A stretch of DNA of 64,000 bases from Candidatus Binatia bacterium (GTDB taxonomy: Bacteria; Desulfobacterota; Binatia; HRBIN30), in NCBI GenBank assembly GCA_026004215.1, contig BPIR01000002.1, positions 1,115,031-1,179,030 on the forward strand, in the 5' to 3' direction. Made by a program: the position numbers and the translations under genes. Within the stretch, counting starts at the first letter, position 1; each line of letters opens with the position of its first letter. This document shows, piece by piece, positions 1,945-34,768 of the stretch. Below the pieces are notes generated by a model, which saw only the letters and a program-made list of their open reading frames with translations, did not search any database and was not told the DNA's origin.

Positions 1945-2933
1945 TGCCGGCGCAAGCCGGTGCGCCGCCCACGCCTTTGGTCGAGGCGCGCGGATTGGTG
2001 AAGCATTTCCCAGTCCGGCGCGTCTGGGGCCGGCCGCGCGAGTTCGTGCGCGCGGTGGATGGCGTGGATTTGTTCGTCCGCCCCGGAGAAACTCTCGGCG
2101 TCGCCGGCGAGTCGGGTTGCGGAAAGTCCACACTGGGGCGGCTGCTCTTGCGGCTGTTGGAACCGACGGCGGGGGAAGTGCGCTTTCAGGGCGAAGACCT
2201 TCTGGCATTGCGCGGCCAGGAGTTGCGCCGCCGGCGCCGCTACATGCAAATTGTATTTCAAGACCCGTACGGTTCGCTCAACCCGCGCATGCGTGTGGGC
2301 GACATCGTGGGCGAAGGCTTGGACATTCACGGCTTGGCCAAGGGCCGGGAGCGCAAAGAGCGCGTGCTGGCGCTGCTGCAGCGGGTCGGGCTGTCGCCCG
2401 AAGCCTACGATCGCTACCCGCACGAATTCAGTGGCGGGCAGCGCCAGCGCATTGGTATCGCCCGGGCCTTAGCGGTGGAGCCCCGTTTCATTGTTGCCGA
2501 CGAGCCCGTATCGGCGCTGGACGTTTCGATTCAGGCGCAGATCGTGAATTTGTTGCAGGACCTGCAAGAAGAGCGCGGCCTGGCATACCTATTCATCACC
2601 CACGACTTGCGGCTGGTCGAACACATCAGCCATCGCGTTGCGATCATGTACCTGGGGCAGATCGTGGAACTGGCGGATGCGGAAGAGCTGTACCAAAACC
2701 CTCGCCATCCCTATACGCGAGCCCTGCTGTCTGCGATTCCCGAGCCCGATCCGGAACGGCGCCGCGAGCGCATCATCCTTCCGGGCGACGTACCGAGCCC
2801 CGTGAATCCACCCTCCGGTTGCCGCTTTCATCCGCGCTGCCCCTTTGCCGAGCCGCGGTGCCGGACCGAGGCCCCGCCGTTGCTCGCCAACGCGCGCGGC
2901 CATGCCGTGGCATGCCACGTGTTCCCCGCATAA
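1944..2933 (+). CDS. Oligopeptide/dipeptide-type ABC transporter ATP-binding protein (OppF/DppF-like).
   Basis: The ATG overlaps the upstream stop (TGATG). Motifs [17 protein letters not shown] and HPYTRALL...CRFHPRC are present. The 5' part of the long 1482..2933 ORF is an overlap artefact. Confidence 0.8.
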
Positions 2934-3171
2934 ATCGTTCGGACCTTCGATCTTCGTTGTGCCGGCTGCCGGGCGAGGGGTATCTGTGTCGCGTGCCGAT
3001 GTGTGTGGCGGGGGCCCGGGCGGTGGGGGATGTTGCGTTGTGTCGCCCGCAGGAGGAGGCACCGGGTTGAAAGCAACGGACGTGGGGTGATCGGCCGGGC
3101 GCGAGGAATCGAGCGCGGTTGTTTGCACCACGGAAAAAGAGTGGGTAAGAGCGAACGGAGAGGAAACGGTT

Positions 3172-3612
3172 GTGGCATTTTGGAACCGCGAGAACGAGGA
3201 GGCAAAAGCACCACAAACCACGCCGAGCGTGCCGGATGGGAAGGAAGCGGGCAGCTCACAGGCGGCCAGCGGCCTGGTGGCGCATCAGCCGGCAGTTCGC
3301 CAGCTCCTCGGGCGTGAGACCACGGTAACCGGCAAACTCAGTTTCAACGCGCCGACCCGGATCGATGGGGTGCTCAACGGCGAGGTCAAAGCGAGCGATC
3401 TGCTGGTTATTGGCGAGGAGGGAAAAGTGGACGGGGCGGTGCGCGCCCGCCAGCTTCTTGTGCTGGGAGAAGTCCGCGGTGAGGTGTTTGTCGAAGGTCG
3501 GGCGGAAATCGGCGCCAGTGGGCGATTGTTCGGCTCGATCTGCAGCAAGGATCTCGTGGTGCAGGCCGGAGCCGTGTTGGAAGGCGACTGCAAGATTGGG
3601 CAAGCGGGTTGA
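3172..3612 (+). CDS. Bactofilin family cytoskeletal protein (DUF583/CcmA-like).
   Basis: Repetitive beta-helix-type GxV/GxI motifs (VIGEEGKVDGAVRARQLLVLGEVRGEVFVEGRAEIGASGRLFGSI) are present. The GTG start follows a GGAGAGGAAACGG RBS. Confidence 0.7.
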   Translation: MAFWNRENEEAKAPQTTPSVPDGKEAGSSQAASGLVAHQPAVRQLLGRETTVTGKLSFNAPTRIDGVLNGEVKASDLLVIGEEGKVDGAVRARQLLVLGEVRGEVFVEGRAEIGASGRLFGSICSKDLVVQAGAVLEGDCKIGQAG

Positions 3613-3684
3613 CCGATCGCGACGCGCTGCGGGCGGCTCGAACCGTTCTCGCGTGATCGAGCCCCGTGATATGGAGGGCGCGCC

Positions 3685-4389
3685 ATGCGGACGCGAGAGC
3701 TGCGAATTCCCTTGAGGGAACTGGGCGAGGTTGGAGCGACCTTGGCCATGCCGGCAGGTTTGCGCTTTCCGTACGGGGTGCTCCTGGCGCATGGCGCGGG
3801 GAACGACCGCTTCGCCCCGCTGTTAGTCCATGTGCAACAAGGGCTCGCCCGCCACGGCGTGCCGTGCGGAACGTTTAACTTCCCCTATAAAGAGCGCAGC
3901 GCACGCCTGCCCGACCCATTTCCCGTGCTGATGGAAACGTACCGACAAGTGCTGCGTTATCTCCGCGCGCGGATGGCGCGGGCTGTGGGCGCGTGGGTGA
4001 TTGGGGGCAAGTCGCTGGGCGGGCGAGTCGCTTCTCATTTAGCGGCTGAGGGTGAGGAGGTCCGGGGGCTGGTGTTTTTAGGCTATCCTCTGCATCCCGC
4101 CTCGAACCCGGAGCGGCTCAGGGTCGAACATTTGCCGCGGATCCGGGTGCCGATGTTGTTCGTGCAGGGCACGCGCGATGCTTTGTGCGATCTGCAAATT
4201 TTGGGCAACGTGCTGCTGCGCCTCGCCCACGATTACGGCTGCCGAGCGGAGCTGGCGACGATTGACGGCGGCGACCATTCCTTCGTCCTGCCCCGCTCGC
4301 TTGGCCACCAGCAGGCAAATGTGTACGAGCAAATTGTTCAGCGCATTCATGGATGGTTGGAAAGCCTCGCCGAGGGTCCCCGTTCGTGA
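3685..4389 (+). CDS. Alpha/beta-hydrolase fold protein (predicted dienelactone-hydrolase/Tex30-like esterase).
   Basis: A nucleophile elbow GGKSLGG and downstream Asp/His residues (DGGDHSF) are present. A GGAGGG RBS lies 7 nt upstream of the ATG. Confidence 0.6.
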   Translation: MRTRELRIPLRELGEVGATLAMPAGLRFPYGVLLAHGAGNDRFAPLLVHVQQGLARHGVPCGTFNFPYKERSARLPDPFPVLMETYRQVLRYLRARMARAVGAWVIGGKSLGGRVASHLAAEGEEVRGLVFLGYPLHPASNPERLRVEHLPRIRVPMLFVQGTRDALCDLQILGNVLLRLAHDYGCRAELATIDGGDHSFVLPRSLGHQQANVYEQIVQRIHGWLESLAEGPRS

Positions 4390-7799: not shown

Positions 7800-8244
7800 A
7801 GCTCGACTGGTCTGCTTGGCACGCCAGAGCCCCGGGCACAAGCGGCGCAAGCGATCCATCTCGCCGGAGCCGGATCCCCCCGGGCGGGCCGGCACCTGCC
7901 CGGTCGCGAACAATTTCAACTACGCGCGAGAGCGGCTGCGCCGTGCGTCGTGCACGGGCCGGGCAAGCTTATAGCCTGCCGCGGCAGGGTGAGATGGGCC
8001 AAGGTGTTGCATGGCCGTGCCGCCGCGACGGGCTGCGCTGCTTGCGCCACCACGGCCGGCCTTGCGCCATGGCGCAATCCATCCCTGGAAGTTCTCCCTG
8101 CGAATCGGCAACGGACTGGCACGATTTGCCTCGAGGCCGGGCACGGATAGGGGTCGCTTCTGCGCGGCCTGCGGGCGGCCTTGCACAAGAATCGGCGCGT
8201 TGGACTTTCGTGATGCAGAGCAATCTGACAGAGGAAAGATCACG

Positions 8245-9372
8245 ATGGCTTGGTTGCTAGCGGGAGCGGCGCTTGCTTGGGTGGTGTACGCCGTGTTTGG
8301 GCGGCGCTGGCGCGTGGAGCCGCTTCTCGAGCGGGTGGCGCCGGGGAGTTACGGGCGAGTCGTGGCGGTCGTGCCCGCGCGCAACGAGGCCCAGGAGTTA
8401 CCGGCCACGCTGCCGTGCTTGTTCCGGCAAACTTACGAGGACTTTTCGATCGTCCTTGTAGACGATCACTCGACGGACGACACCGCTGCGATCGCCGCTC
8501 GTTTGGCCCTGGAATATGGGGCCAAGGCGCGGTTGCAGATCGTGCAGCCACCGCCGCTTCCCCCGGGATGGATGGGGAAGGTATGGGCACAAAAAGCGGG
8601 ATGCACGGAAGCCGCGCGTTTAGGTGCAGAGTGGATTTGGTTCACGGATGCGGACATTCGCCACGAGCCTGACGTGTTGGAGCGCCTCCTGTCCACCGCG
8701 ACGCGGCATGGCCGCGATTTTGTGTCCGTCATGGCGCGGCTGCGCACGGATACCTGGGCCGAGAAGCTGCTGATCCCCGCATTTACCTACTTTTTTGCGA
8801 TGCTTTACCCCTTTCATCGCATTGCGGACGACACCAAAAGCGACTCCGGTGCCGCCGGCGGATGTATGCTCGTTCGGCGCGAACTACTGGAGCGCGCCGG
8901 TGGGCTCGACGCGATTCGCGACGCGGTTATTGACGACGTCGCATTGGCCAGTGCGGCCAAACGCGTCGGCGGGCGTTTGTGGCTCGGCTACCATCCGGGC
9001 GTGCAGTCCACACGCGGCTACGGTTCGCTTCGCGCTGTTACCGATATGGTGGCGCGCAGCGCTTACACGCAACTGCACTACAACCCGCTGTTGCTCGTCG
9101 TCTGTGTGGTCGGGTTGTTTTTCGTCTTCCTGTGGCCATTCATGGCCCTTTGGCTGGCGCCGTTTCCTGCCAAGTGGTGGGCTGCCCTGGCCTACGCAGC
9201 CATGGTACGAACGTACCTGCCGCTCGTGCACTTTCTCGGCTGCGGTGCAACCTGGGCACTGGCCTTGCCCATGGCCGCAGCATTGTACCTGTGGATGACC
9301 GTGTTGTCGGCGTGGCGCTTTTACCGTGGCACGCGCACTCGTTGGAAAGGCCGGGAGTACAAGGCTTCCTGA
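8245..9372 (+). CDS. Family 2 glycosyltransferase, membrane-anchored.
   Basis: The GT-A fold sequence VVPARNE...FSIVLVDDHSTDDT...FTDADI is present. Hydrophobic N- and C-terminal segments indicate membrane anchoring. Confidence 0.65.
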   Translation: MAWLLAGAALAWVVYAVFGRRWRVEPLLERVAPGSYGRVVAVVPARNEAQELPATLPCLFRQTYEDFSIVLVDDHSTDDTAAIAARLALEYGAKARLQIVQPPPLPPGWMGKVWAQKAGCTEAARLGAEWIWFTDADIRHEPDVLERLLSTATRHGRDFVSVMARLRTDTWAEKLLIPAFTYFFAMLYPFHRIADDTKSDSGAAGGCMLVRRELLERAGGLDAIRDAVIDDVALASAAKRVGGRLWLGYHPGVQSTRGYGSLRAVTDMVARSAYTQLHYNPLLLVVCVVGLFFVFLWPFMALWLAPFPAKWWAALAYAAMVRTYLPLVHFLGCGATWALALPMAAALYLWMTVLSAWRFYRGTRTRWKGREYKAS

Positions 9373-23097: not shown

Positions 23098-23310
23098 TTA
23101 CCGGCAGATGAGCGTTGCAGGATCACAAACACCGCTCTGGCAGTCGATGCTGCGACTGCATGGGTCGCCGGGTTGCCCCAAAGCTGGCGTGGCCGTGGGT
23201 GTCGGCCGCGCCGGCGGCGTCGGGATGAATCCGCCCACCACGATATCGTCGCCGCCGCAACCGGCGGCCAGCGAGAGAAACGCGGCACACGCCAGGCTCG
23301 CGATCAATCC
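23098..23310 (-). CDS. Possible small Cys-rich lipoprotein. The start is uncertain (TTG).
   Basis: The sequence reads IASLACAAFLSLAAGCGGDD, then a PT-rich stretch, then DPCSRSIDCQSGVCDPATLIC. The lipobox and linker style match the neighbouring lipoproteins. Confidence 0.25.
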   Translation of the reverse strand, partial: GLIASLACAAFLSLAAGCGGDDIVVGGFIPTPPARPTPTATPALGQPGDPCSRSIDCQSGVCDPATLICR

Positions 23311-23417
23311 GCGCCAGACACCGAGGGACCCGGGTGCGCCCACCGGGAGCTGGCCACACAAAGGCACCGCGGGTGGGGAAACGATCCACCGACCGTTAGC
23401 GTGCGGGCGCGGTGCGC

Positions 23418-23801
23418 TCACGAGCCGCCGTTCTCGGAAAGCAGCGGCGAAGGCCGCCCCGACAAAAGAGCCCGGCGTTGGGCCTGATAGTGGGTGGCGC
23501 ACAGTCCCTTGGCGACGCGTTCCCGCTCGCAACCCTTGACCTGGCAGCGCCGCTCTTTTGGAATCGTCGGCTTGGGTGGCGGCCGCCAGCCTTGCAGCTC
23601 TTTTTCCGCTGTCACCAGCCCTTCATTGAGCAGGGCGATAACGATCTCGCTTTTGGTTGCGGGCAACAAGTTGGCCAGCCGATCGATCCGCTCGAGCATG
23701 CTCGAAGGGACCTTGACGTTCAGAAGCCGTAAAGCCTCTGCCCTACGGCGTCCTCGTTGTAACAACTCGCCGAGGCGCAAACCCGAATCTTTGAGCGACA
23801 T
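23418..23801 (-). CDS. Small DNA-binding protein: N-terminal ribbon-helix-helix (CopG/Arc-like) plus a C-terminal HNH-type zinc-ribbon motif.
   Basis: The RHH-like segment is SSMLERIDRLANLLPATKSEIVIALLNEGL. The C-terminal motif is CQVKGCERERVAKGLCATHYQAQRRALLSG. Confidence 0.5.
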   Translation of the reverse strand: MSLKDSGLRLGELLQRGRRRAEALRLLNVKVPSSMLERIDRLANLLPATKSEIVIALLNEGLVTAEKELQGWRPPPKPTIPKERRCQVKGCERERVAKGLCATHYQAQRRALLSGRPSPLLSENGGS

Positions 23802-23838
23802 GTCCCACTCCCGATCAGACTGAATTGTGGCACCAAAA

Positions 23839-23856
23839 CTTGTAACATGCTTTACA
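23839..23856. promoter_or_regulatory. Inverted repeat TTGTAA-N6-TTACAA about 40 bp upstream of the RHH gene start. This is a candidate operator.
   Basis: The inverted repeat was read directly from the sequence. Confidence 0.3.
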
Positions 23857-24151
23857 ACTTTGTCGACCCTTTTCTTTCACGTTCCACTCGCAGAGTCTAG
23901 ATGTATGGTGACGCACGTCGGTTAGAGGAGATCCTGCGGTGACGCAGTCAAAGGGAGGGGCGTTGCAGGAGCCGCATGTGTTGCCAGCCCCTTGTGCAGG
24001 CTCGTCACGAGGCCGACTCGTTCAGCTTTACGGGTTGCGGGCTAGGCGGCAGGGGCGCGATCGCAATGTTTGCTCCCCAACGCCGCGCACCGGTTGGAGA
24101 CCAACGGCACGGTGGTGCGAGTACGATCAGTTCGAGGGGCAACGCACCGGC

Positions 24152-25207
24152 TCACCCGGCTGCTTGCAGAGGCTGGGTGCTCTCGCCGTAGAGCTCACGC
24201 CAGAATAGCGCTTCGATCGTTTGGGCGACCTGCCCGTCGCGCGTCGAGCCGAAGGCATGGCGCCACGAACGCAGCGGCACAATCGCCTTGGCCATCGAGC
24301 GATGTCCGCCGGCACGGCCAATCGGTCCGAACAAACGGCGCACCAACTCACCGGCGCTGCGGACATATCCGGGATTGCGAACGGACATGACAATGGAGTC
24401 GTGCGTTTTTCCCGACACGACGACCCACTCCGTATTTTCGAATTGCATGCAGAAGTCGGCGAGCTGAGGGATCACGTCTTCGCGCTCGACTTTACCAACG
24501 TGCAGTGTCAGAAGTTCGTCACGCTTGCGAATGCGGGGGAGCACTCGGGAGAGAAACGCAGCGAAGGCCAGCGGCAATTCCGGCCGCTCGATGCGCCGCA
24601 ACACGTTGTAATTGGTCAAGGGGTACAGGGCCATAAACGCCCGCAAATCTGCTGGGCCCGTTTCGCGGTTCAGCATGAGCGTGTCGCTCTTGATGCCGTA
24701 CAGCAAAGCGGTCGCGAGCCGCTGGCTGACATCGGCACCGGCGGCTTCGAGGTACTCGGTCAAAATGGTCGCCGTGGCACCGTAGTTCGTGCGTACATCG
24801 CAGAACTCGGCGTCCAACGGACCACACCGGGGGTGGTGGTCGATCACAATATGCACGTGGGGAAGGCGTTCGCCAAAATAGCCCGGCTGCACATCCAGCA
24901 AGGCCACGCGCGGGAAGCCACGCAGCGTTTCCGTATCTACCGGCTCGACCGAGACATCCAGCAGCCGGATCATGGCCAAGTTTTCGGCGCGCGTGACCTG
25001 CCCAAACGTGAAAATGGGCGTCGTCGCGCGGTTGCGGCCCAAGACCGTGCGCAGCGCAATGGCGCTGGCGATGCCGTCTGGGTCGGGATCGTCCTGGAGT
25101 AGCAAAGCCACCCGTTCGGCTTCGCCGACCACCTTTCGGAGCTGTTCTAAACGGGCACGATTGCCCTCGATATCGACTTCATAAGTGGCTGGATTGACGA
25201 GTTGCAT
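24152..25207 (-). CDS. DHH-family phosphoesterase (NrnA-like bifunctional oligoribonuclease/pAp phosphatase).
   Basis: DHH (DPDGIASAIAL) and DHHA1 (GGGHRSMAKA) motifs are present. The ATG at 25207 follows a CAGGAG RBS. Confidence 0.7.
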   Translation of the reverse strand: MQLVNPATYEVDIEGNRARLEQLRKVVGEAERVALLLQDDPDPDGIASAIALRTVLGRNRATTPIFTFGQVTRAENLAMIRLLDVSVEPVDTETLRGFPRVALLDVQPGYFGERLPHVHIVIDHHPRCGPLDAEFCDVRTNYGATATILTEYLEAAGADVSQRLATALLYGIKSDTLMLNRETGPADLRAFMALYPLTNYNVLRRIERPELPLAFAAFLSRVLPRIRKRDELLTLHVGKVEREDVIPQLADFCMQFENTEWVVVSGKTHDSIVMSVRNPGYVRSAGELVRRLFGPIGRAGGHRSMAKAIVPLRSWRHAFGSTRDGQVAQTIEALFWRELYGESTQPLQAAG

Positions 25208-25378
25208 ACGACACTCCTGACCCGGAGCATTGCCTCCCGAGGCCACCCACCACGGCCTGGTCGCGCGTTCGGGCAACGGCTGACACGGGATGGTCGTCTG
25301 TGTCCATTCGCCTACCCATGGCGTCTCCGGCGGACCTTTGTGCCTACCATGGGTCCACAAGCAGGACAACCTTAGCCC

Positions 25379-26476
25379 CTATCGGTTGCATGGGGGATGG
25401 GAAAGCGAGAGGCCGTTCACGCTCGGGTCGAGACGAGAAAACCACTCTTCGTTGCGGACGAATTGTTGGAAAAAAGGCCGCATGACTCTGACCTGCGAAG
25501 CATAACGCCCGAGGGCCTCTTGCTTAGCGGCAACCTGCTCGTTTTCGAGCCTTACCGAGATCCACCCCGACCCGGCCAGCAGGGGGCGCCCCTGGCGTGC
25601 TCCGCAGGTGCCGCTGGCGGCGGCTTGGTCGCTCCACGACGGTTCGCCCGGATAGCCAGGAAAATGGACAAGATACCCGAGCACGATCGGGGGGGGAATG
25701 GCACCCTTCTCCCGAGCTGCGCGCACGGCTGCCAGCATGAAGAGGCCGGCGGTACAGTGATCCGGATGAGTGTCCCGAGGATCGGGAACGACCACAACTC
25801 CCGGCTGCCATTCGGTGAGGATGCGAAGCAGCCGGCGTTCGAGCTCCACGCCGCGGTACTGCAAAGCGGGCTGCGACAACGTCTGGCTCAGCTCCGTGAA
25901 GGGCGACACGTAAGGTTCGAGCGCGCACCAGTAAGGCCCCCAGAGTGCCGCGAGTCCACCGTCGGGGAAACCCAAAAACGTGAGCCAGCTCGCAGGCACG
26001 CCCAGCGCCAGTTGTGCTTCCGCGGCCTCGGCCTGGCGCTGGCGTCCGTACCGGCGAAAATCTTCCGCCGATGGCGTGCGCTCCTTGAGTTGGGCAGCGA
26101 CGGCCTCGAAGTATCCGTCTCCATTGGTCACGTACACAATGCGGATTGGAGCCCGCCGTGCCAGCGCGCGCTGGATGAGGCCGGCCGCGGCTAAAGTTTC
26201 ATCATCCGGGTGAGGTGCAACCACCAGAACTTTCGTGCTCTCGGAGAGCATGCTGTCCCACTGCACTGCCTTGGCGGAATCGAGCCCACTTCGGTCCGCG
26301 GTCGTGCGCGGAGCCGTCACCGCCGAAGGGGAAGCATCATAGGGAGCATAGGCGGCAGGGGTCGCTTGGCTCTGGCGGGGCGGCGGCTCCACGTTCCACG
26401 CCATGGCACGAAGCTCGGCGAGGAGCCACGACACGACACTCGCCGCGGCTACGCAACAGAAAAGCCGTACATTCAC
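25379..26476 (-). CDS. PIG-L/LmbE-family N-acetylglucosaminyl deacetylase with N-terminal signal/TM.
   Basis: The LmbE motif VLVVAPHPDDETLAAAGL...VYVTNGDG and HPDH are present. A long C-terminal extension follows. Confidence 0.7.
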   Translation of the reverse strand: MNVRLFCCVAAASVVSWLLAELRAMAWNVEPPPRQSQATPAAYAPYDASPSAVTAPRTTADRSGLDSAKAVQWDSMLSESTKVLVVAPHPDDETLAAAGLIQRALARRAPIRIVYVTNGDGYFEAVAAQLKERTPSAEDFRRYGRQRQAEAAEAQLALGVPASWLTFLGFPDGGLAALWGPYWCALEPYVSPFTELSQTLSQPALQYRGVELERRLLRILTEWQPGVVVVPDPRDTHPDHCTAGLFMLAAVRAAREKGAIPPPIVLGYLVHFPGYPGEPSWSDQAAASGTCGARQGRPLLAGSGWISVRLENEQVAAKQEALGRYASQVRVMRPFFQQFVRNEEWFSRLDPSVNGLSLSHPPCNR

Positions 26477-26497
26477 CGTTGCGGCCGAAGGAGAAGG

Positions 26498-26953
26498 CTA
26501 TCGGTTGTCGCCCGACTCTCCGGGCGGTTGCGAGACCTTTTCCGCGGTCTTTGCGAGTTGGCGCGATAAATCTCGGGTGTGAAGCTGGGCGTCGATACGA
26601 GCGAACAGTTCCCGGCGGTTGACGGGCTTGGTGAGAAACTCGCTCACACCAAGGTCCATGGCCTGCGAGCGCGTTTCCATGTCGTCCTTGGCGGTTAAAA
26701 GAATCACTGGAATTTGCCGCCAGTTTTCATCGGCACGCAGCCGCCGGCACACCTCCAGCCCGTCCATTCCGGGCATCATGACGTCGAGCAAGATCACATC
26801 CACGGTTTGGGACCGGAGCTTTTCCAGTGCTTCCGGACCCGTGTGCGCGGCGATACTAATGTGGCCTTCGCGGTTCAGCATCCTCGTGAGGATCTCCACC
26901 GCGTTCTCGTCATCGTCTACGACCAGAATTCGACCTTTCAGATGATCGGCCAT
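26498..26953 (-). CDS. Stand-alone response-regulator receiver domain (CheY-like).
   Basis: The sequence ILVVDDDENAVEIL...VILLDVMMPGMDG...LLTAKDD carries the acceptor Asp and the conserved Lys. An AAGGAAGGAAAG RBS precedes it. Confidence 0.8.
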   Translation of the reverse strand: MADHLKGRILVVDDDENAVEILTRMLNREGHISIAAHTGPEALEKLRSQTVDVILLDVMMPGMDGLEVCRRLRADENWRQIPVILLTAKDDMETRSQAMDLGVSEFLTKPVNRRELFARIDAQLHTRDLSRQLAKTAEKVSQPPGESGDNR

Positions 26954-26969
26954 GTTGTGCTTTCCTTCC

Positions 26970-27950
26970 TTACAAAACGCAGCCCTGGTCGGAGCTACTC
27001 GCTTTGCGGCGCAGCTTGGCAACTAACGTGGTACGCTTGAGTCCCAGCAACCGGGCGGCTGCTTGTTTGTTCCCTTTGGTCCGGCGCAGAGCCTCGTCAA
27101 TCAGCCGATACTCGAACTCTTCCACGGCTCGGTTCAGATCGATCCCTTCATCCGTCAGCGTCGGCCGGGGAATTTTTTTATCCGATATGAAGGTGCGAAT
27201 GTTGGGCGGAAGGTTCTCGACTCGAATGATGCCGTCCTCACTCAGAATCACGAGACGCTCGATTAAATTCTCCAGCTCGCGCACGTTTCCCGGCCAGTCG
27301 TACTCCCACAAGTGCACCATGGCTTCGTCCGACACGCGCACGGGCTGCCCGGGGCGCTGACTATTGTGCTTTTCCAAGAAATGCTGCACCAAAACCGGAA
27401 TATCCGAGCGGCGCTCGCGCAACGGCGGTATCGTGATCGGGATCACTTGCAGGCGGTAAAACAAATCCTCGCGAAAACGACCTGCTTTGACATCGGCCGA
27501 CAGGTCCCGATTGGTGGCCGCAATCACCCGCACATCCACCCGAATCGTACGGTCCGAACCCACCGGCCGAATTTCACGCTCCTGCAGCACCCGCAATAGC
27601 TTGACCTGCAAAGCCGGAGTCATCTCTCCGATTTCGTCGAGGAAAATGGTGCCGCCGTTGGCGTACTGAAACAGCCCCATGCGGGCTGCCACAGCACCTG
27701 TAAACGCCCCCTTTTCGTGGCCGAACATTTCGGACTCCAGCAGGTCCGCCGGGATGGCGCCACAGTTAACGGGGATGAACGGGTTGTTGGCCCGGCGGCT
27801 GCGTGCATGGATGTAACGGGCAACCAGTTCCTTGCCCGTGCCGCTCTCCCCTTGAATCAACACGGTCGAATCGGTGGGGGCCACCCGGTCGCAAATCTGG
27901 AAGATCTTTTCCATGACCGGGTGGTTTCCTTTGACGATGTACGGTTCCAT
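26970..27950 (-). CDS. Sigma-54-dependent transcriptional activator made of only the AAA+ sigma-54 interaction domain and a C-terminal Fis-type HTH.
   Basis: Motifs [23 protein letters not shown] (GAFTGA) and a C-terminal HTH ([19 protein letters not shown]) are present. The ATG at 27950 sits directly after GGGAGGACC. Confidence 0.8.
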
Positions 27951-28119
27951 GGTCCTCCCGCGCAAAAAGCGTCAAAAAAATAGCGGCATTGCGCTCCACG
28001 GGCAACCCAGCCAGCAAACATTTCATTGTGTGGTCTCCGGTGGGGTACGCGCAGCGGCTTGCGCGTCTCTCGCCCTCGTTGGTACAAGCAGGCGCCTTGT
28101 CCGAGGAGGAAAGCACTGC

Positions 28120-28836
28120 ATGCGTCGTGTGGATGGCCGCTTACCAACCGATCTCCGGCCCGTGGTGATGCACCCCGGGTTCATCCGCCAGGCTTTGGGC
28201 TCGGTGCTGGCCGAAGCTGGAAACACGCGTGTGATTTGCACGGCATCGCTGGAGGAAGCTGTGCCGCCGTTTTTAGAGGACACGGGGAAGGGCTGGCTTA
28301 CTGCGGAGTACAGCATGTTGCCTGGATCGAGTCCGCAGCGAATCCAGCGCGAAGCCGCGCGCGGGCGCTTGGGCGGGCGTACCCACGAAATTCAGAGGTT
28401 AATTGGGCGGAGTTTGCGGTCGGTGGTAGACCTCGCCAAACTCGGGCCACGGACGGTGTGGATAGACTGTGACGTCATCGAAGCCGACGGCGGCACGCGT
28501 ACCCTTTCGATCACGGGCGCCTATGTGGCCCTGGCGCTCGCCGTGCGCCGGCTTCTGGACAATGGAATCCTAGAACAAAACCCGATTACCGGGGCAGTTG
28601 CAGCGGTGAGCGCCGGGCTTGTAGACGGCACACCCGTGCTCGATCTTTGCTACGCGGAAGACTCGCGGGCCGAGGTAGACATGAATTTCGTCATGACCGA
28701 TTCGGGCCGCTTCGTCGAGGTGCAAGGCACGGCTGAGGGGCACCCGTTCGATCGCGCCACCCTGGAACAATTGACGGACTTGGCATGGTCGGGCATCCAG
28801 CGACTCTTGGCCATCCAGAAGCAAGTGCTGGGATGA
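28120..28836 (+). CDS. rph: Ribonuclease PH.
   Basis: The sequence [15 protein letters not shown]...[17 protein letters not shown] is a typical RNase PH N-terminus. The whole ORF is about 238 aa. GAGGAGGA RBS. Confidence 0.9.
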
Positions 28837-29468
28837 ACAGCGCATCCCACCGGCCCAAGCTGGTGCTGGCGACCGCCAACCCCGGTAAAGTGAAAGAGCT
28901 CCGCGAGCTCCTCGCCCCCGCCGGAGTCGAGTGCATTTCGCTCGAGGGGCTCCACGGGGTTCCGGTAGTGGAGGAAACCGGGCGCACCTACGAGGAAAAT
29001 GCCGCTTTGAAGGCCCGTGCCATCGCGGCGTGGGCTGGGCTTGCTGCTCTTGCCGACGACTCGGGGCTGGAGGTAGATGCCTTGGAGGGCGCACCTGGCG
29101 TGGATTCTGCGTACTATGCCGGCAGGCCTGCCGACGACGCAGCCAATGTGGCCAAACTTTTGCGCGCCCTCGAAGGGGTGCCGCCCGAACGCCGTCAGGC
29201 ACGTTTCCGCTGTGTTCTGGTCGTTGTCCGGCCTGATGGAAAGGTGCTCGCGAGCGAAGGGATTTGCGAGGGCCGGATTGCTCTGGCCCCGCGCGGCCAA
29301 CAGGGGTTCGGCTACGATCCGATTTTCATTCCGGAAGGGAGCGACAAAACCTTTGCCGAGCTCGGTCCCGAATTCAAACGACACTACTCCCATCGCGCGC
29401 GCGCCGCACGCAAGCTGCGGGAGCGTTTGCGCAATTTTCTTACCGAACAATGCGTAACTGCCGATTGA
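28833..29468 (+). CDS. rdgB: Non-canonical purine NTP pyrophosphatase (RdgB/HAM1 family).
   Basis: The sequence [15 protein letters not shown]...FGYDPIF is present. The start overlaps the rph stop (ATGA). Confidence 0.85.
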
Positions 29469-30089: not shown

Positions 30090-30237
30090 CAAGGCGTTCT
30101 GTGTCGCGTTGACCCTCGCGCCGTGGACGACGTGGTGTTTGATGTCTTGGGTTTGACGGCAGGGGAGCGGGAGGCGGTGTACGAGGCGGTAATTGAGCTG
30201 TGCGTGCGCGGCTGGAGAAGGCAAGGAGTGTATAGCC

Positions 30238-30919
<682 letters not shown>

Positions 30920-31056
30920 GTGTCGCGTGACCCTCGCGCCGTGGACGACGTGGTGTTTGATGTCTTGGGTTTGACGGCCGGGGAGCGGAAGGCGGTGTAC
31001 GAGGCGGTAATTGAGCTCGTCCGCGCGCGGCTGGAGAAGGCAAGGAGTGTATAGCC

Positions 31057-31753
<697 letters not shown>

Positions 31754-31815
31754 ACGTAGCAGCAAATATTGCGCCCGTGCCGGTGTGGGTGCGAAGCGAT
31801 GCCGGGCGGGGTCGC

Positions 31816-31956
31816 CGAACAGCGTTGGTTCGACATCCCAATTCATTTCCCGCACGTGGTATTGGGCGCGTTGGTGGTGATGCCCAATCATGTCCATGGC
31901 ATTATCGTTCTTGTCGGGCCGGATGATGTAGGGGCGGGTTCGAAACCCGCCCCTAC
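31816..31956 (+). pseudogene. Third, more divergent Y1 transposase fragment. It contains only the HuH region (WFDIPIHFPHVVLGALVVMPNHVHGIIVLV) and ends in a REP-like palindrome at 31928..31956.
   Basis: The fragment is homologous to residues ~55-100 of copies A and B. Its palindrome, GTAGGGGCGGGTTCGAAACCCGCCCCTAC, sits at the same position after HuH. The fragment is open in-frame into the downstream moxR ORF. Confidence 0.5.
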
Positions 31957-31999
31957 CGCGGGTTGCACGGCCGGTGGCCTACCGATACCAAAAGGGCTC

Positions 32000-32881
32000 A
32001 TGTCGCAGGACAACGGCTTCAGGAAATTCCAAGGAACCGCAGGATACGTCGCCTCGCCCGCTTTGGTGGAGGCTGTCAACTGTGCCATCGCCCTCGAGCG
32101 CCCGCTGCTGATCAAGGGCGAACCGGGCACGGGCAAAACGGTGCTGGCGCGGCACGTCGCCGAAGGGCTCGGCCTCAAAATGCTGTCGTGGCACATCAAG
32201 TCCACCAGCAAAGCCGCCGAGGGTCTCTACGTGTACGACACAGTGCAGCGCCTTAATGACAGCCGCTTTGGAACCGGCGACGTCTCCGACATTCGCCGCT
32301 ACATCAAACTCGGCCCTCTCGGGCAAGCATTTGCCTCGCCAGAACGGGTGGTTCTTCTCATTGACGAAATCGACAAGGCCGACCTCGAATTCCCGAACGA
32401 CTTGCTGCGCGAGCTCGACGAAATGCGCTTCACCATCATCGAAACAGGCGAAGAAATCGTCGCGCGCCACCGCCCGATCGTCATTATTACCTCGAACAAC
32501 GAAAAGGAGCTGCCCGACGCTTTTCTGCGCCGCTGTATCTTCTACTACATCGAGTTCCCCGACCCTGCGCTCATGCGGCGCATCGTGGCGGTACACCACC
32601 CTCACCTGGATGCCAAGCTCCTCGACCAAGTCCTCATCAAATTTTACTGGCTGCGAGAACAGCGCGAGCTGCGCAAAAAACCTTCCACGTCGGAACTCAT
32701 CGACTGGATCGCGGCCCTGGTGCGCGCCGGCGTGAGCTTGGAGAAAATCGAGCAGCACATTCCTTTCGTGGGGGCGCTTCTCAAGAAGGAACAAGACGTG
32801 GACGCTTTGCAGCGTTACGACGCTGCGGGAGGACGTTTCCCCAAGTCGTGGGCGGAGCTCGGCCCGCGATACAATCAATGA
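32000..32881 (+). CDS. MoxR-family AAA+ ATPase (CoxD-like).
   Basis: Walker A (LLIKGEPGTGKT) and Walker B (VLLIDEIDKA) motifs are present in a protein of about 293 aa. The start is placed at the ATG at 32000. The upstream in-frame extension is a transposase fragment. Confidence 0.8.
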   Translation: MSQDNGFRKFQGTAGYVASPALVEAVNCAIALERPLLIKGEPGTGKTVLARHVAEGLGLKMLSWHIKSTSKAAEGLYVYDTVQRLNDSRFGTGDVSDIRRYIKLGPLGQAFASPERVVLLIDEIDKADLEFPNDLLRELDEMRFTIIETGEEIVARHRPIVIITSNNEKELPDAFLRRCIFYYIEFPDPALMRRIVAVHHPHLDAKLLDQVLIKFYWLREQRELRKKPSTSELIDWIAALVRAGVSLEKIEQHIPFVGALLKKEQDVDALQRYDAAGGRFPKSWAELGPRYNQ

Positions 32882-32900
32882 GCGAGGCGCCGAGGGGCAG

Positions 32901-34106
32901 ATGTTCCTCGATTTGTTCTACGGGCTCCGCGAAGAAGGTGTTCCCGTCGGCATCCAGGAATGGATGACGTTTCTGGAGGCCCTGGAAAAAGGCCTGCACG
33001 GCTCGAGCTTGCTGGGATTTTATCAGCTCGGACGAGCTTGCCTGATCAAGAGCGAGACCTACTTCGATGCTTACGATCGCGTGTTTGCGCGTGTGTTCCG
33101 CGGTGTCGAAGGCTCATTTGGCGACGAGGTCGTAGAAAAAGTGCTGCAGTGGCTCCGCGATCCGAAGAACTTCCCCAACCTTACGCCGGAGCAGCTCGCG
33201 CAACTCGAGCGCCTGAGCCACGACGAGCTCATGCGGCGCTTTCTGGAAACGCTGGAGAAACAAACGGAACGCCACGATGGGGGCGACCGTTGGATCGGCA
33301 CGGGGGGACGTTCGCCATTTGGTCACTCCGGACAGCACCCCACCGGAATCCGCGTGGGCGGCCCGCCGCGCAGCCGCTCTGCCATGAAGGTGGCGGAAGA
33401 GCGGCGCTTTCGTGACTATCGCACCGATGTGAGCTTGGACGTGCGGCAGATCCGCGTGGCTTTACGGCGGCTGCGCCACTTGACCCGCACGGGCGAGGCC
33501 ACCGAGCTAGATCTGGATCGCACGGTAGACGAAACGTGCCGCAACGCAGGTGAAATCGAGCTGGTGTTCCGCCCGCCCCGGCGAAACGACGTGCGGCTGC
33601 TGCTTCTCATGGATGTCGGCGGTACGATGGATCCCTACTTCGAGCCGGTGAGCCAATTGCTGACGGCGCTACATGAAGAGCGGGGTTTGCGAGCCTTCGA
33701 GGCGTACTACTTCCACAACTGCATTTACGATCACGTGTACAGCCGTGCCCGCATGTTTCGCAGCGATGCCGTGCCCACGGGCGATTTGTTGCGCCGCTTG
33801 GACTCGCGATGGAAAGTGCTGATCGTCGGAGATGCATCCATGCATCCTGCAGAGCTCCTCGAGCCGTTCGGCAACATCGATCCCCGGCGAGTCTCGGCAA
33901 CTCCAGGGATTGTCTGGCTGCAACGGATTGCCGCGCATTTCGAGCGCAGCGTGTGGGTGAACCCGGAGAAACCGCCGTATTGGGATGCCGACACCTGCCG
34001 GATCATTCGCAAGCTGTTTCCGATGTTTTATCTGAGCGTTGACGGACTCACTGAAGCCGTGCAAGCTTTGGTCGGCGCGCGGCCGGCGGCAACCGGCCAC
34101 GCTTGA
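32901..34106 (+). CDS. VWA-domain protein, CoxE-like.
   Basis: A MoxR partner-type VWA domain (LLLMDVGGTMDP ... MIDAS-like DxS/T) lies immediately downstream of the MoxR ATPase. Confidence 0.75.
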   Translation: MFLDLFYGLREEGVPVGIQEWMTFLEALEKGLHGSSLLGFYQLGRACLIKSETYFDAYDRVFARVFRGVEGSFGDEVVEKVLQWLRDPKNFPNLTPEQLAQLERLSHDELMRRFLETLEKQTERHDGGDRWIGTGGRSPFGHSGQHPTGIRVGGPPRSRSAMKVAEERRFRDYRTDVSLDVRQIRVALRRLRHLTRTGEATELDLDRTVDETCRNAGEIELVFRPPRRNDVRLLLLMDVGGTMDPYFEPVSQLLTALHEERGLRAFEAYYFHNCIYDHVYSRARMFRSDAVPTGDLLRRLDSRWKVLIVGDASMHPAELLEPFGNIDPRRVSATPGIVWLQRIAAHFERSVWVNPEKPPYWDADTCRIIRKLFPMFYLSVDGLTEAVQALVGARPAATGHA

Positions 34107-34141
34107 GTTTCCGGCCGACGTTCGTAAACGGAGGTGGTGCC

Positions 34142-34768
34142 ATGAAACTGTGGAGCGAAAGTTTTACCGATGGCGGACGCATTCCCGAGCGTTGCGCGTT
34201 CGGAAGGTACAACCCGCAAACGCACGTCGAGTTGAGCGACAACAAAAATCCCCACCTGGCATGGTCCGGTCTGCCCGCGGGTACAAAATCGCTGGTGCTC
34301 CTCTGTCACGACTCCGATGTGCCCAGCCGCGCTGACGACGTGAACAAGGAGGGCGCGGCCGTTCCGGCATCGCTCCCGCGGGTGGACTTTTTCCACTGGG
34401 TGTTAGTGGACCTGGATCCGAGCATCACGGAAATTGCCGAAGGCGAATTCTCCAACGGCATCGTGCCCCACGGCAAGCCCGGGCCGGAAGGGCCACGCGG
34501 CACGCGCCAGGGGATCAACGATTACACAAACTGGTTTGCCAACGACCCGCAAATGGCGGGTGACTATTATGGTTACGACGGTCCCTGCCCGCCGTGGAAC
34601 GACGAAATCGTTCACCACTACCACTTCACCTTGTATGCCACCGACTTCGACCGCTTCCCTCTGAGCGGCAAGTTTACCGGCGGGGATGTACTGCGCGCCT
34701 TGCAAGGTCATGTGCTCGCCCAAGCGCGCATCACCGGCACATACGCGATCAACCCGAATGCGCGCTGA
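34142..34768 (+). CDS. YbhB/YbcL-family PEBP (Raf-kinase-inhibitor-like) protein.
   Basis: The sequence SLVLLCHDSDVPS...FFHWVLVDLD...GPCPPWNDEIVHHYHFTLYA is typical of bacterial PEBP. A GGAGGTG RBS precedes it. Confidence 0.75.
   Translation: MKLWSESFTDGGRIPERCAFGRYNPQTHVELSDNKNPHLAWSGLPAGTKSLVLLCHDSDVPSRADDVNKEGAAVPASLPRVDFFHWVLVDLDPSITEIAEGEFSNGIVPHGKPGPEGPRGTRQGINDYTNWFANDPQMAGDYYGYDGPCPPWNDEIVHHYHFTLYATDFDRFPLSGKFTGGDVLRALQGHVLAQARITGTYAINPNAR

Follow-up and report, generated by a model that had tools for sequence, protein, structure and literature searches.

Sigma-54 activators are textbook cases of control by a fused sensor domain, and the few known activators without a receiver, PspF and HrpR/S, are restrained by proteins dedicated to inhibiting them. 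Receiverless bacterial enhancer-binding proteins (bEBPs) have been classified as group 4 (PMC7175178, Table 1) or type Ic (PMC3162934) and are regulated by proteins that bind them in trans. Xanthomonas has an rpoN2-vemR-fleQ operon in which vemR encodes a single-domain receiver; the kinase RavA, which is not linked to the operon, phosphorylates VemR, and VemR binds FleQ (PMC8828458). Here we analysed a 64,000-nucleotide stretch of DNA from a Candidatus Binatia bacterium (contig BPIR01000002.1, positions 1,115,031 to 1,179,030; the whole stretch is hereafter the window), in which the gene for a receiverless sigma-54 activator is directly followed by the gene for a stand-alone CheY-like receiver. 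We found that this pair is kept together within and beyond the Binatia while other neighbours change, and we propose tentatively that the receiver may regulate the activator in trans.

An earlier reading made from the letters alone (the sequence-only reading) had described four co-oriented genes at this locus, and all four lie on the minus strand where it had placed them. These genes and the promoter predicted for the activator operon are as follows:

27969..28005, minus strand: sigma-70-type promoter predicted for the activator operon (P1), from comparison across loci
26970..27950, minus strand: sigma-54 activator (bEBP), 326 amino acids, from Pfam and NCBIfam, orthologue lengths and an upstream in-frame stop
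26498..26953, minus strand: stand-alone CheY-like receiver, 151 amino acids, from Pfam Response_reg
25379..26476, minus strand: exported or membrane-anchored deacetylase of the PIG-L/LmbE family, from Pfam PIG-L
24152..25207, minus strand: DHH/DHHA1 phosphoesterase of the NrnA/GdpP/Rv2837c class, 351 amino acids, from motifs and Foldseek

A short activator followed by a receiver

The activator begins almost directly with its AAA+ domain, as the sequence-only reading had stated. Pfam assigned Sigma54_activat to residues 13–177 (E = 1e-73; PF00158, 247 bits against a cut-off of 20.2), AAA_lid_14 to residues 183–258 and the helix-turn-helix HTH_8 to residues 281–320, and found no domain before residue 13. 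The motifs GESGTGKE and GAFTGA, both named in that reading, are present together with FLDEIGE; Walker A, Walker B and GAFTGA are intact, and the motif cores are invariant across the subfamily. Members also share a linker motif, LPxNIxSFxSxKKxPxPT, and the recognition helix RTTLVAKLR, where other activators have RTTLVEKIK. The best matches of the activator in the PDB were the central domains of ZraR (300 bits), FleQ, NifA and NtrC, and the NCBIfam models for AtoC and NtrC aligned to it over their C-terminal two-thirds (E = 1e-107 to 1e-111). It fell below every NCBIfam equivalog cut-off, including those for ntrC (TIGR01818, 359.9 against 558.6), AtoC (373 against 714), PspF (TIGR02974, 271.8 bits against 443.55; PRK11608, 224 against 529) and PrsR (TIGR02915, 331 bits against 502.6). 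In its composition, AAA+ and helix-turn-helix domains with no regulatory domain, the activator matches the receiverless bEBPs of group 4 and lacks the fused N-terminal receiver that marks the NtrC type.

The start codon of the activator, an ATG at 27950 preceded by GGGAGG, is genuine, as judged from three observations. An in-frame stop lies seven codons upstream. The divergent rph gene is only about 165 bp away from the ATG, which leaves no room for a hidden receiver of about 120 amino acids. Finally, the 120 best database homologues (78–94% identical) are all 314–364 amino acids long, nearly all of them 326–332. With more than 100 orthologues of the same short length (314–339 amino acids), the possibility of a mis-called start is refuted, and the short activator is a conserved architecture rather than an annotation error.

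The receiver begins 16 nucleotides past the activator stop codon (the sequence-only reading had given 17) and has, as that reading reported, its own ribosome-binding site (GGAAGGAAAG). It is a clear Response_reg domain (E = 9e-33; PF00072, 113 bits against a cut-off of 30.2) in which residues D13, D14, D57, T87 and K109 are invariant among 12 orthologues, and it ends in a helical C-terminal tail of about 25 residues. Its best single-domain matches in the PDB were PhoP (96 bits), the first receiver domain of PleD (PleD-D1, 92) and YycF (88), whereas the NtrC receiver scored 61. Similarly, when compared with the receivers fused to the nearest NtrC-type activators (P0260, P0262 and P0270), it reaches only 28–35% identity (45–65 bits). 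The receiver is thus more like receivers of the PhoP, PleD and OmpR type than like those of the NtrC type. A specific affinity with PleD was considered and rejected: the PleD total had been inflated by summing its two receiver domains, and PleD-D1 alone scores about the same as PhoP.

These comparisons bear on the description of the locus as a split NtrC, of which one half stands: a receiverless activator is accompanied by a separate receiver. In the evolutionary sense the pair probably did not arise by gene fission, because in every lineage the activator gene comes first and the receiver gene second, where fission of an NtrC gene would have left the receiver upstream, and because the receiver has low identity to the fused receivers of NtrC-type proteins. 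In the functional sense, the pair may still be a split NtrC.

To follow the pair across genomes, we compared about 25 Binatia loci, some found through activator homologues and some with the DHH protein as the query. In all those with enough sequence, rdgB and rph are transcribed away from a divergent activator gene that is followed by the receiver gene; the receiver is directly downstream of the activator, with a gap of 8–37 nucleotides, in about 20 loci. Identity to the window proteins is 78–96% for the activator, 75–91% for the DHH protein, 57–79% for the receiver, 59–87% for RNase PH, 50–71% for RdgB and 38–61% for PIG-L. At one locus (L085), the activator–receiver pair is followed by unrelated genes and no DHH gene.

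Outside the Binatia, the closest relatives of the activator are all short, and each is directly followed by a receiver of about 150 amino acids (L002 and P0254, 62% identical; P0256/L111–113, 59%). L002 and L111 have receivers that share 47% identity with that of the window and 58% with each other. At L002 the order of the two genes is kept, with a gap of about 110 nucleotides that is explained by a frameshift in the activator gene. At L111 the pair has its own promoter, TTGACA-17-TACACT, and a hairpin terminator after the receiver; none of the Binatia neighbours of the pair is present at L111, and neither L002 nor L111 has the divergent rph/rdgB arrangement. L002 was the one useful outgroup among the matches listed in a contig search with the activator as the query; these were mostly classical NtrC-type loci and served as a contrast set only. 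Among them, generic activators with 47–56% identity nearly all have a fused upstream receiver. Two receiverless activators from outside the subfamily lack a downstream receiver: P0302, whose context is phage-like, and P0298, whose gene is followed by one for a TPR protein. Because the pair is kept across lineages while its neighbours change, the deep, stable unit is the activator–receiver pair, and the two genes very likely form a functional unit. Of the four-gene order set out in the sequence-only reading, only part of the Binatia keeps the whole.

L002 also contains a second receiverless activator (8047–9260), which is divergent from the first one and seems to be frameshifted. Upstream of it is a near-consensus sigma-54 promoter (TGGCACTGGCATTGCT at 9258, minus strand), and it is followed by a PAS/histidine-kinase region and a classical NtrC-type regulator; this second activator and its neighbours could constitute an activator cascade.

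Upstream of the activator, comparison of loci brought out the element that we call P1. In the window it consists of TTGCCC (28005–28000), a 17-nucleotide spacer, TATTTT (27982–27977) and TTTGACGC (27976–27969), and the pattern TTGCnn-N17-TAnTTT occurs in 16 of 16 distinct loci, ending 25–43 nucleotides before the activator ATG. P1 is a predicted sigma-70-type promoter. It emerged only from comparing loci: a generic scan for sigma-70 promoters and terminators gave no promoter, and terminators at chance level. The TTTGACGC part is conserved beyond what a −10 hexamer needs, so it may be an operator or a start-site signal. The AT-rich block that contains it, TATTTTTTTGACGC (27969–27982, minus strand), is nearly invariant in L082–L106, in a genome of about 63% GC.

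Possible control of the activator in trans

If the pair is a functional unit, the receiver may be a phosphorylation-dependent regulator of the activator that acts in trans, a proposal that draws on the analogy with VemR/FleQ and PspA/PspF and on strict co-inheritance, and which we consider the likeliest explanation, at about even odds. Under this proposal, the activator and the receiver would be transcribed from P1, an unlinked histidine kinase would phosphorylate the receiver, and the phosphorylated receiver would bind the activator in trans and control its assembly or its ATPase. A separate polypeptide would thereby exert the control for which NtrC-type proteins rely on their fused receiver. 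This control could be either inhibition or activation. With its ATP-hydrolysis and sigma-54-contact residues intact, the activator should act at −24/−12 promoters, which would lie elsewhere in the genome, and the invariant helix-turn-helix implies that these share one conserved enhancer sequence. In the Binatia the DHH gene adjoins the pair and would sometimes be co-transcribed with it.

Several observations weigh against this proposal. Single-domain receivers often have other partners, and the functional link between these two genes is drawn solely from their neighbourhood. We found no histidine kinase and no rpoN among the open reading frames within about 10 kb, and no target sigma-54 promoter or enhancer for the activator in scans of the window and the Binatia loci. 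Only about 12 residues precede the AAA+ core of the activator, so the receiver could not dock through a coiled coil, as happens in NtrC1 and DctD. Even the precedent is disputed in part: VemR was found to bind RpoN2 in one study (PMC6637908), and a later study found no such interaction (PMC8828458).

The main rival explanation is co-expression without direct interaction. The activator might be constitutive, or set by its own level or by another trans factor, while the receiver acts elsewhere, as a phosphate sink or on sigma-54 or some other target. PspF and similar receiverless activators have intrinsic activity (PMC7175178), the receiver here belongs to a generic type resembling PhoP, PleD and OmpR, the activator has no docking linker and the reported binding of VemR to RpoN2 (PMC6637908) offers a precedent for another target. 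By contrast, independence does not readily account for a pair that stays tightly spaced in four separate lineages while its other neighbours all change, for receivers that diverge together with their activators (47% compared with 59–62% identity) or for the absence of a receiver beside the receiverless activators outside the subfamily (P0302 and P0298). On this balance, we regard independence of the two proteins as the strongest competitor, though an unlikely one.

Neighbouring genes and promoters

The two genes downstream of the pair and the housekeeping genes divergent from it raise the question of a wider pathway. The remaining features of the locus are as follows:

25341..25369, minus strand: putative internal sigma-70-like promoter (P2), from comparison across loci
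28120..29468, plus strand: rph (RNase PH, 28120..28836) and rdgB (Ham1), a divergent housekeeping operon and conserved Binatia neighbour
23418..23801, minus strand: RHH-like protein of 127 amino acids, from tblastn, with a weak, sub-threshold match to an antitoxin family
23098..23532, minus strand: Cys-rich putative lipoprotein, from tblastn

The gene after the receiver encodes, as the sequence-only reading had proposed, a secreted LmbE-type deacetylase: its Pfam score is well above the cut-off (PF02585, 93.9 bits against 28.2), and all orthologues have an N-terminal hydrophobic, signal-like segment. The zinc-binding HPDD and HPDH motifs are present (VVAPHPDDE and THPDH), and the protein scores far below the cut-offs of the MshB, BshB and Mca equivalog models. 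Where it occurs, the PIG-L gene starts 12–45 nucleotides after the receiver gene. It is not found in L095, L098, L099, L100 or L105, in which DHH follows the receiver gene by about 65–85 nucleotides, nor in any outgroup, and it is the least conserved gene of the cluster (38–61% identity). Judged from these loci, PIG-L is a variable insert in the cluster.

The DHH gene may have a promoter of its own. P2 lies after the PIG-L stop (TTGTCC, 17 nucleotides, TAGGCA) with a leader of about 135 nucleotides to DHH. Of 18 distinct upstream regions, 9 contain the pattern TTGT[TC][CG]-N17-TA[GC], compared with 0.05 expected from shuffles, although the pattern was derived post hoc from the same sequences. 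The P2 region (window 25208–25378) is also found upstream of DHH in L082, L089, L092, L101, L107 and L109, with leaders of 105–205 nucleotides that are poorly conserved in sequence. L107 has the P2 element together with the kind of leader that characterises loci lacking PIG-L, a combination suggesting that PIG-L and its promoter were inserted or lost as a cassette. A third element, P3 (TTGCAT-N17-(T)AATAAA), lies ahead of the RHH-like gene in most relatives compared and has no clear equivalent in the window. An Rfam search of the cluster and its leaders returned only three tRNAs.

Sigma-54 control of the cluster itself, which the sequence-only reading had raised, was not borne out. We scanned the window and about 270 kb of Binatia loci strictly, with the pattern TGGCAC-N5-TTGCW and with a weighted scan, and neither in the window nor in its relatives did a sigma-54 site with the correct GG/GC spacing precede a gene of the cluster. 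The window has no convincing −24/−12 site: it gave 2 matches, compared with 2.6 expected, and the candidates were all inside genes and not conserved. The looser GG-N10-GC scan proposed with that reading had no power, as its 1242 matches against 1272 expected are uninformative in DNA of 63% GC. A good sigma-54-like site (TGGCACGTCTGCTGCT) was seen about 5 kb downstream of DHH in the closest relatives, L089 (10753), L090 (13946) and L106 (13944), about 20 nucleotides before the ribosome-binding site and ATG of a small open reading frame (MKKQQKAAPQ...); we found no equivalent in the window.

The DHH protein is identical (100%) to KatS3mg077_2485 from a Candidatus Binatia metagenome-assembled genome, and comparison of orthologues places its start at MQLVNP and not at the TTG at 25369. 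Its Pfam scores fall just below the cut-offs (DHH, 27.9 against 28.1; DHHA1, 17.9 against 25.9). Nonetheless, the motif residues D40/D42/D44, D105, D123-H124-H125, D175 and G300-G301-H302 are invariant, and its AlphaFold model (pLDDT 71.7) matched GdpP, Rv2837c, NrnA, DhhP and Pde2 in Foldseek (E ~1e-14, probability 1.0). The predicted structure thus makes membership of the NrnA/GdpP fold class secure, so that the NrnA-like assignment of the sequence-only reading holds for fold class and motifs, with family scores slightly under threshold. A segment between the DHH and DHHA1 domains (residues 160–214, about 24566–24730, minus strand; SQRLATALLYGIKSDTLMLNRETGPADLRAFM.LYPL.NYN..RRIERPELPL) is nearly invariant among orthologues that are 72–100% identical overall, yet it has the lowest confidence in the model (pLDDT 29–46).

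All loci found with the DHH query have the activator and receiver genes upstream of DHH. In most Binatia loci, a minimal exosortase-family gene (about 160 amino acids) follows 12–50 nucleotides after DHH; the relatives' protein, which most resembles XrtX and XrtH, scores 55.7 bits on TIGR04178 against a cut-off of 23. After the exosortase come, in order, a membrane protein (about 170–195 amino acids), the RHH-like protein and the Cys-rich lipoprotein. The exosortase and membrane-protein genes lie at 9069–10113 in L090 and are also present in L082, L089, L091, L093, L095–L102, L104, L106, L108 and L110. They are missing from L086/L087 and L092, and from the window, where tblastn gave no match and a 350-bp gap (23802–24151) stands in place of the exosortase pair. 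The window's RHH-like protein and lipoprotein are 80% and 46% identical, respectively, to those of L090 (tblastn), and neither was assigned to a Pfam family. On these gene orders, DHH and the minimal exosortase are steadier Binatia partners of the pair than PIG-L. DHH may be the housekeeping nanoRNase, given its position next to rph and rdgB, or it may instead be part of the exosortase operon. Together, the DHH, PIG-L and exosortase neighbours hint at an envelope- or nucleotide-related role that is outside the core module.

Two readings build such a role into the function of the activator. The first, that of the sequence-only reading, makes the four genes one pathway in which sigma-54 control is wired to envelope-glycan deacetylation by PIG-L. 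The deacetylase is exported and follows the receiver closely where present, most relatives have a minimal exosortase and a membrane protein after DHH, and sigma-54 systems are often tied to functions of the cell exterior (PMC3162934). However, PIG-L is the least conserved gene and is absent from five Binatia loci and all outgroups, PIG-L, DHH and the genes after them have no sigma-54 promoter in front, and the window has no exosortase. Coupling of a deacetylase to the activator and receiver is therefore weakly founded, and we consider this pathway improbable.

The second reading makes the activator, receiver and DHH protein a nucleotide-messenger switch, in which the activator would respond to a nucleotide degraded by DHH (pApA, pGpG or a cyclic dinucleotide), as FleQ responds to cyclic di-GMP. 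Consistent with this, the pair lies upstream of every DHH gene recovered with the DHH query, and DHH (75–91%) and the activator (78–96%) are the slowest-evolving genes, compared with 59–87% for RNase PH. In addition, the closest structures to DHH include GdpP, DhhP and TM1595, which hydrolyse pApA or c-di-AMP, and FleQ is among the best PDB matches of the activator. FleQ-like control by cyclic di-GMP was nevertheless rejected, as most of the FleQ binding residues are, on our reading of the alignment, changed in the activator (Y at the R-switch, RY for RN and H..K for E..R). DHH is also not beside the pair in L085 or in any outgroup, and it has its own putative promoter and may be a housekeeping enzyme. 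The chance that the three genes form such a switch seems to us small. Finally, that the activator is an artefact, an ordinary NtrC-type regulator with a mis-called start, a frameshift or a pseudogene, can be dismissed almost entirely given the in-frame stop seven codons upstream, the intergenic region of about 165 bp, the more than 100 orthologues of the same length and the conserved promoter and ribosome-binding site directly upstream.

We return to regulation of the activator by its receiver, stated in full: the free PhoP/PleD/OmpR-like receiver would be a phosphorylation-dependent partner of the activator, either an inhibitor or a promoter of assembly, and so a new input route to sigma-54, and the module would govern the DHH/minimal-exosortase/PIG-L locus of the Binatia. 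We put the probability of this fuller reading at roughly 0.3, and offer it as tentative.

In the window, whose GC content is 59–67%, the plus strand beyond rdgB carries tRNA-Pro, tRNA-Arg and tRNA-His. Several tandem open reading frames at 30193–31900 have a common N terminus, MPYDPER(H/R)HRRSIRLKGYDYTQPGAYFVT, and proline-rich repetitive tails (FAPTIPTFAPTIP...); they resemble remnants of REP-associated (IS200/RayT-like) transposases next to the tRNA cluster, but Pfam gave no match at E < 0.001. Downstream of this tRNA/repeat region, 31769–34768 encodes a MoxR-like AAA+ ATPase and a CoxE-like VWA protein; the 5′ end of the ATPase reading frame seems to be fused to a remnant of one of the repeat frames. 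In L082, a phage-type integrase and a helix-turn-helix gene (2354–4146) are inserted beyond rdgB at the position of the window's tRNA cluster, which suggests that this region is an integration hotspot.

Comparison with known systems

In a limited literature search we found no paper that describes, for this subfamily, a receiverless activator paired with a separate receiver, so the arrangement is apparently undescribed, while both ingredients have precedents. If the receiver does act on the activator, two-component input would reach the AAA+ motor in trans, which would generalise the single case of VemR/FleQ and give a first handle on regulation in the uncultured Binatia, of modest practical value until targets or an interaction are demonstrated.

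Among the neighbours, the DHH protein has the two-domain fold and the metal- and substrate-binding motifs common to NrnA, Rv2837c/CnpB, GdpP, DhhP, Pde2 and TM1595, although it is only 16–22% identical to these stand-alone DHH/DHHA1 phosphodiesterases. In most Binatia relatives, as in PrsK/PrsR loci, a sigma-54 activator lies near an exosortase-family gene. Here, however, the activator has no fused receiver and no adjacent kinase and scores below the PrsR model, and the exosortase is a minimal, XrtX/XrtH-like protein that is absent from the window.

The central and helix-turn-helix domains of the activator are closely related to those of NtrC, NtrC1, ZraR and AtoC, but it lacks their fused receiver, and its separate receiver is not of the NtrC type and is encoded downstream. 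In architecture it is closer to PspF, HrpR/HrpS and LafK, which likewise combine AAA+ and C-terminal helix-turn-helix domains without a regulatory domain. The activator is not an orthologue of PspF, given its score below the TIGR02974 cut-off, and no pspA-like or hrpV-like gene is nearby. Unlike the PspF and HrpR/S group, it is constantly accompanied by a receiver that can be phosphorylated and that would bring in two-component input.

A similar arrangement is that of RavA/VemR/FleQ, compared here by gene arrangement, in which the gene for a single-domain receiver also lies beside a sigma-54 activator gene in one operon. An operon of this type is indicated here by the 16-nucleotide gap, the one conserved promoter motif upstream and the recurrence of the pair in four lineages. 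FleQ keeps an N-terminal FleQ-type domain and shares its operon with rpoN2, whereas the Binatia activator has neither, and here the activator gene comes first and the receiver gene second.

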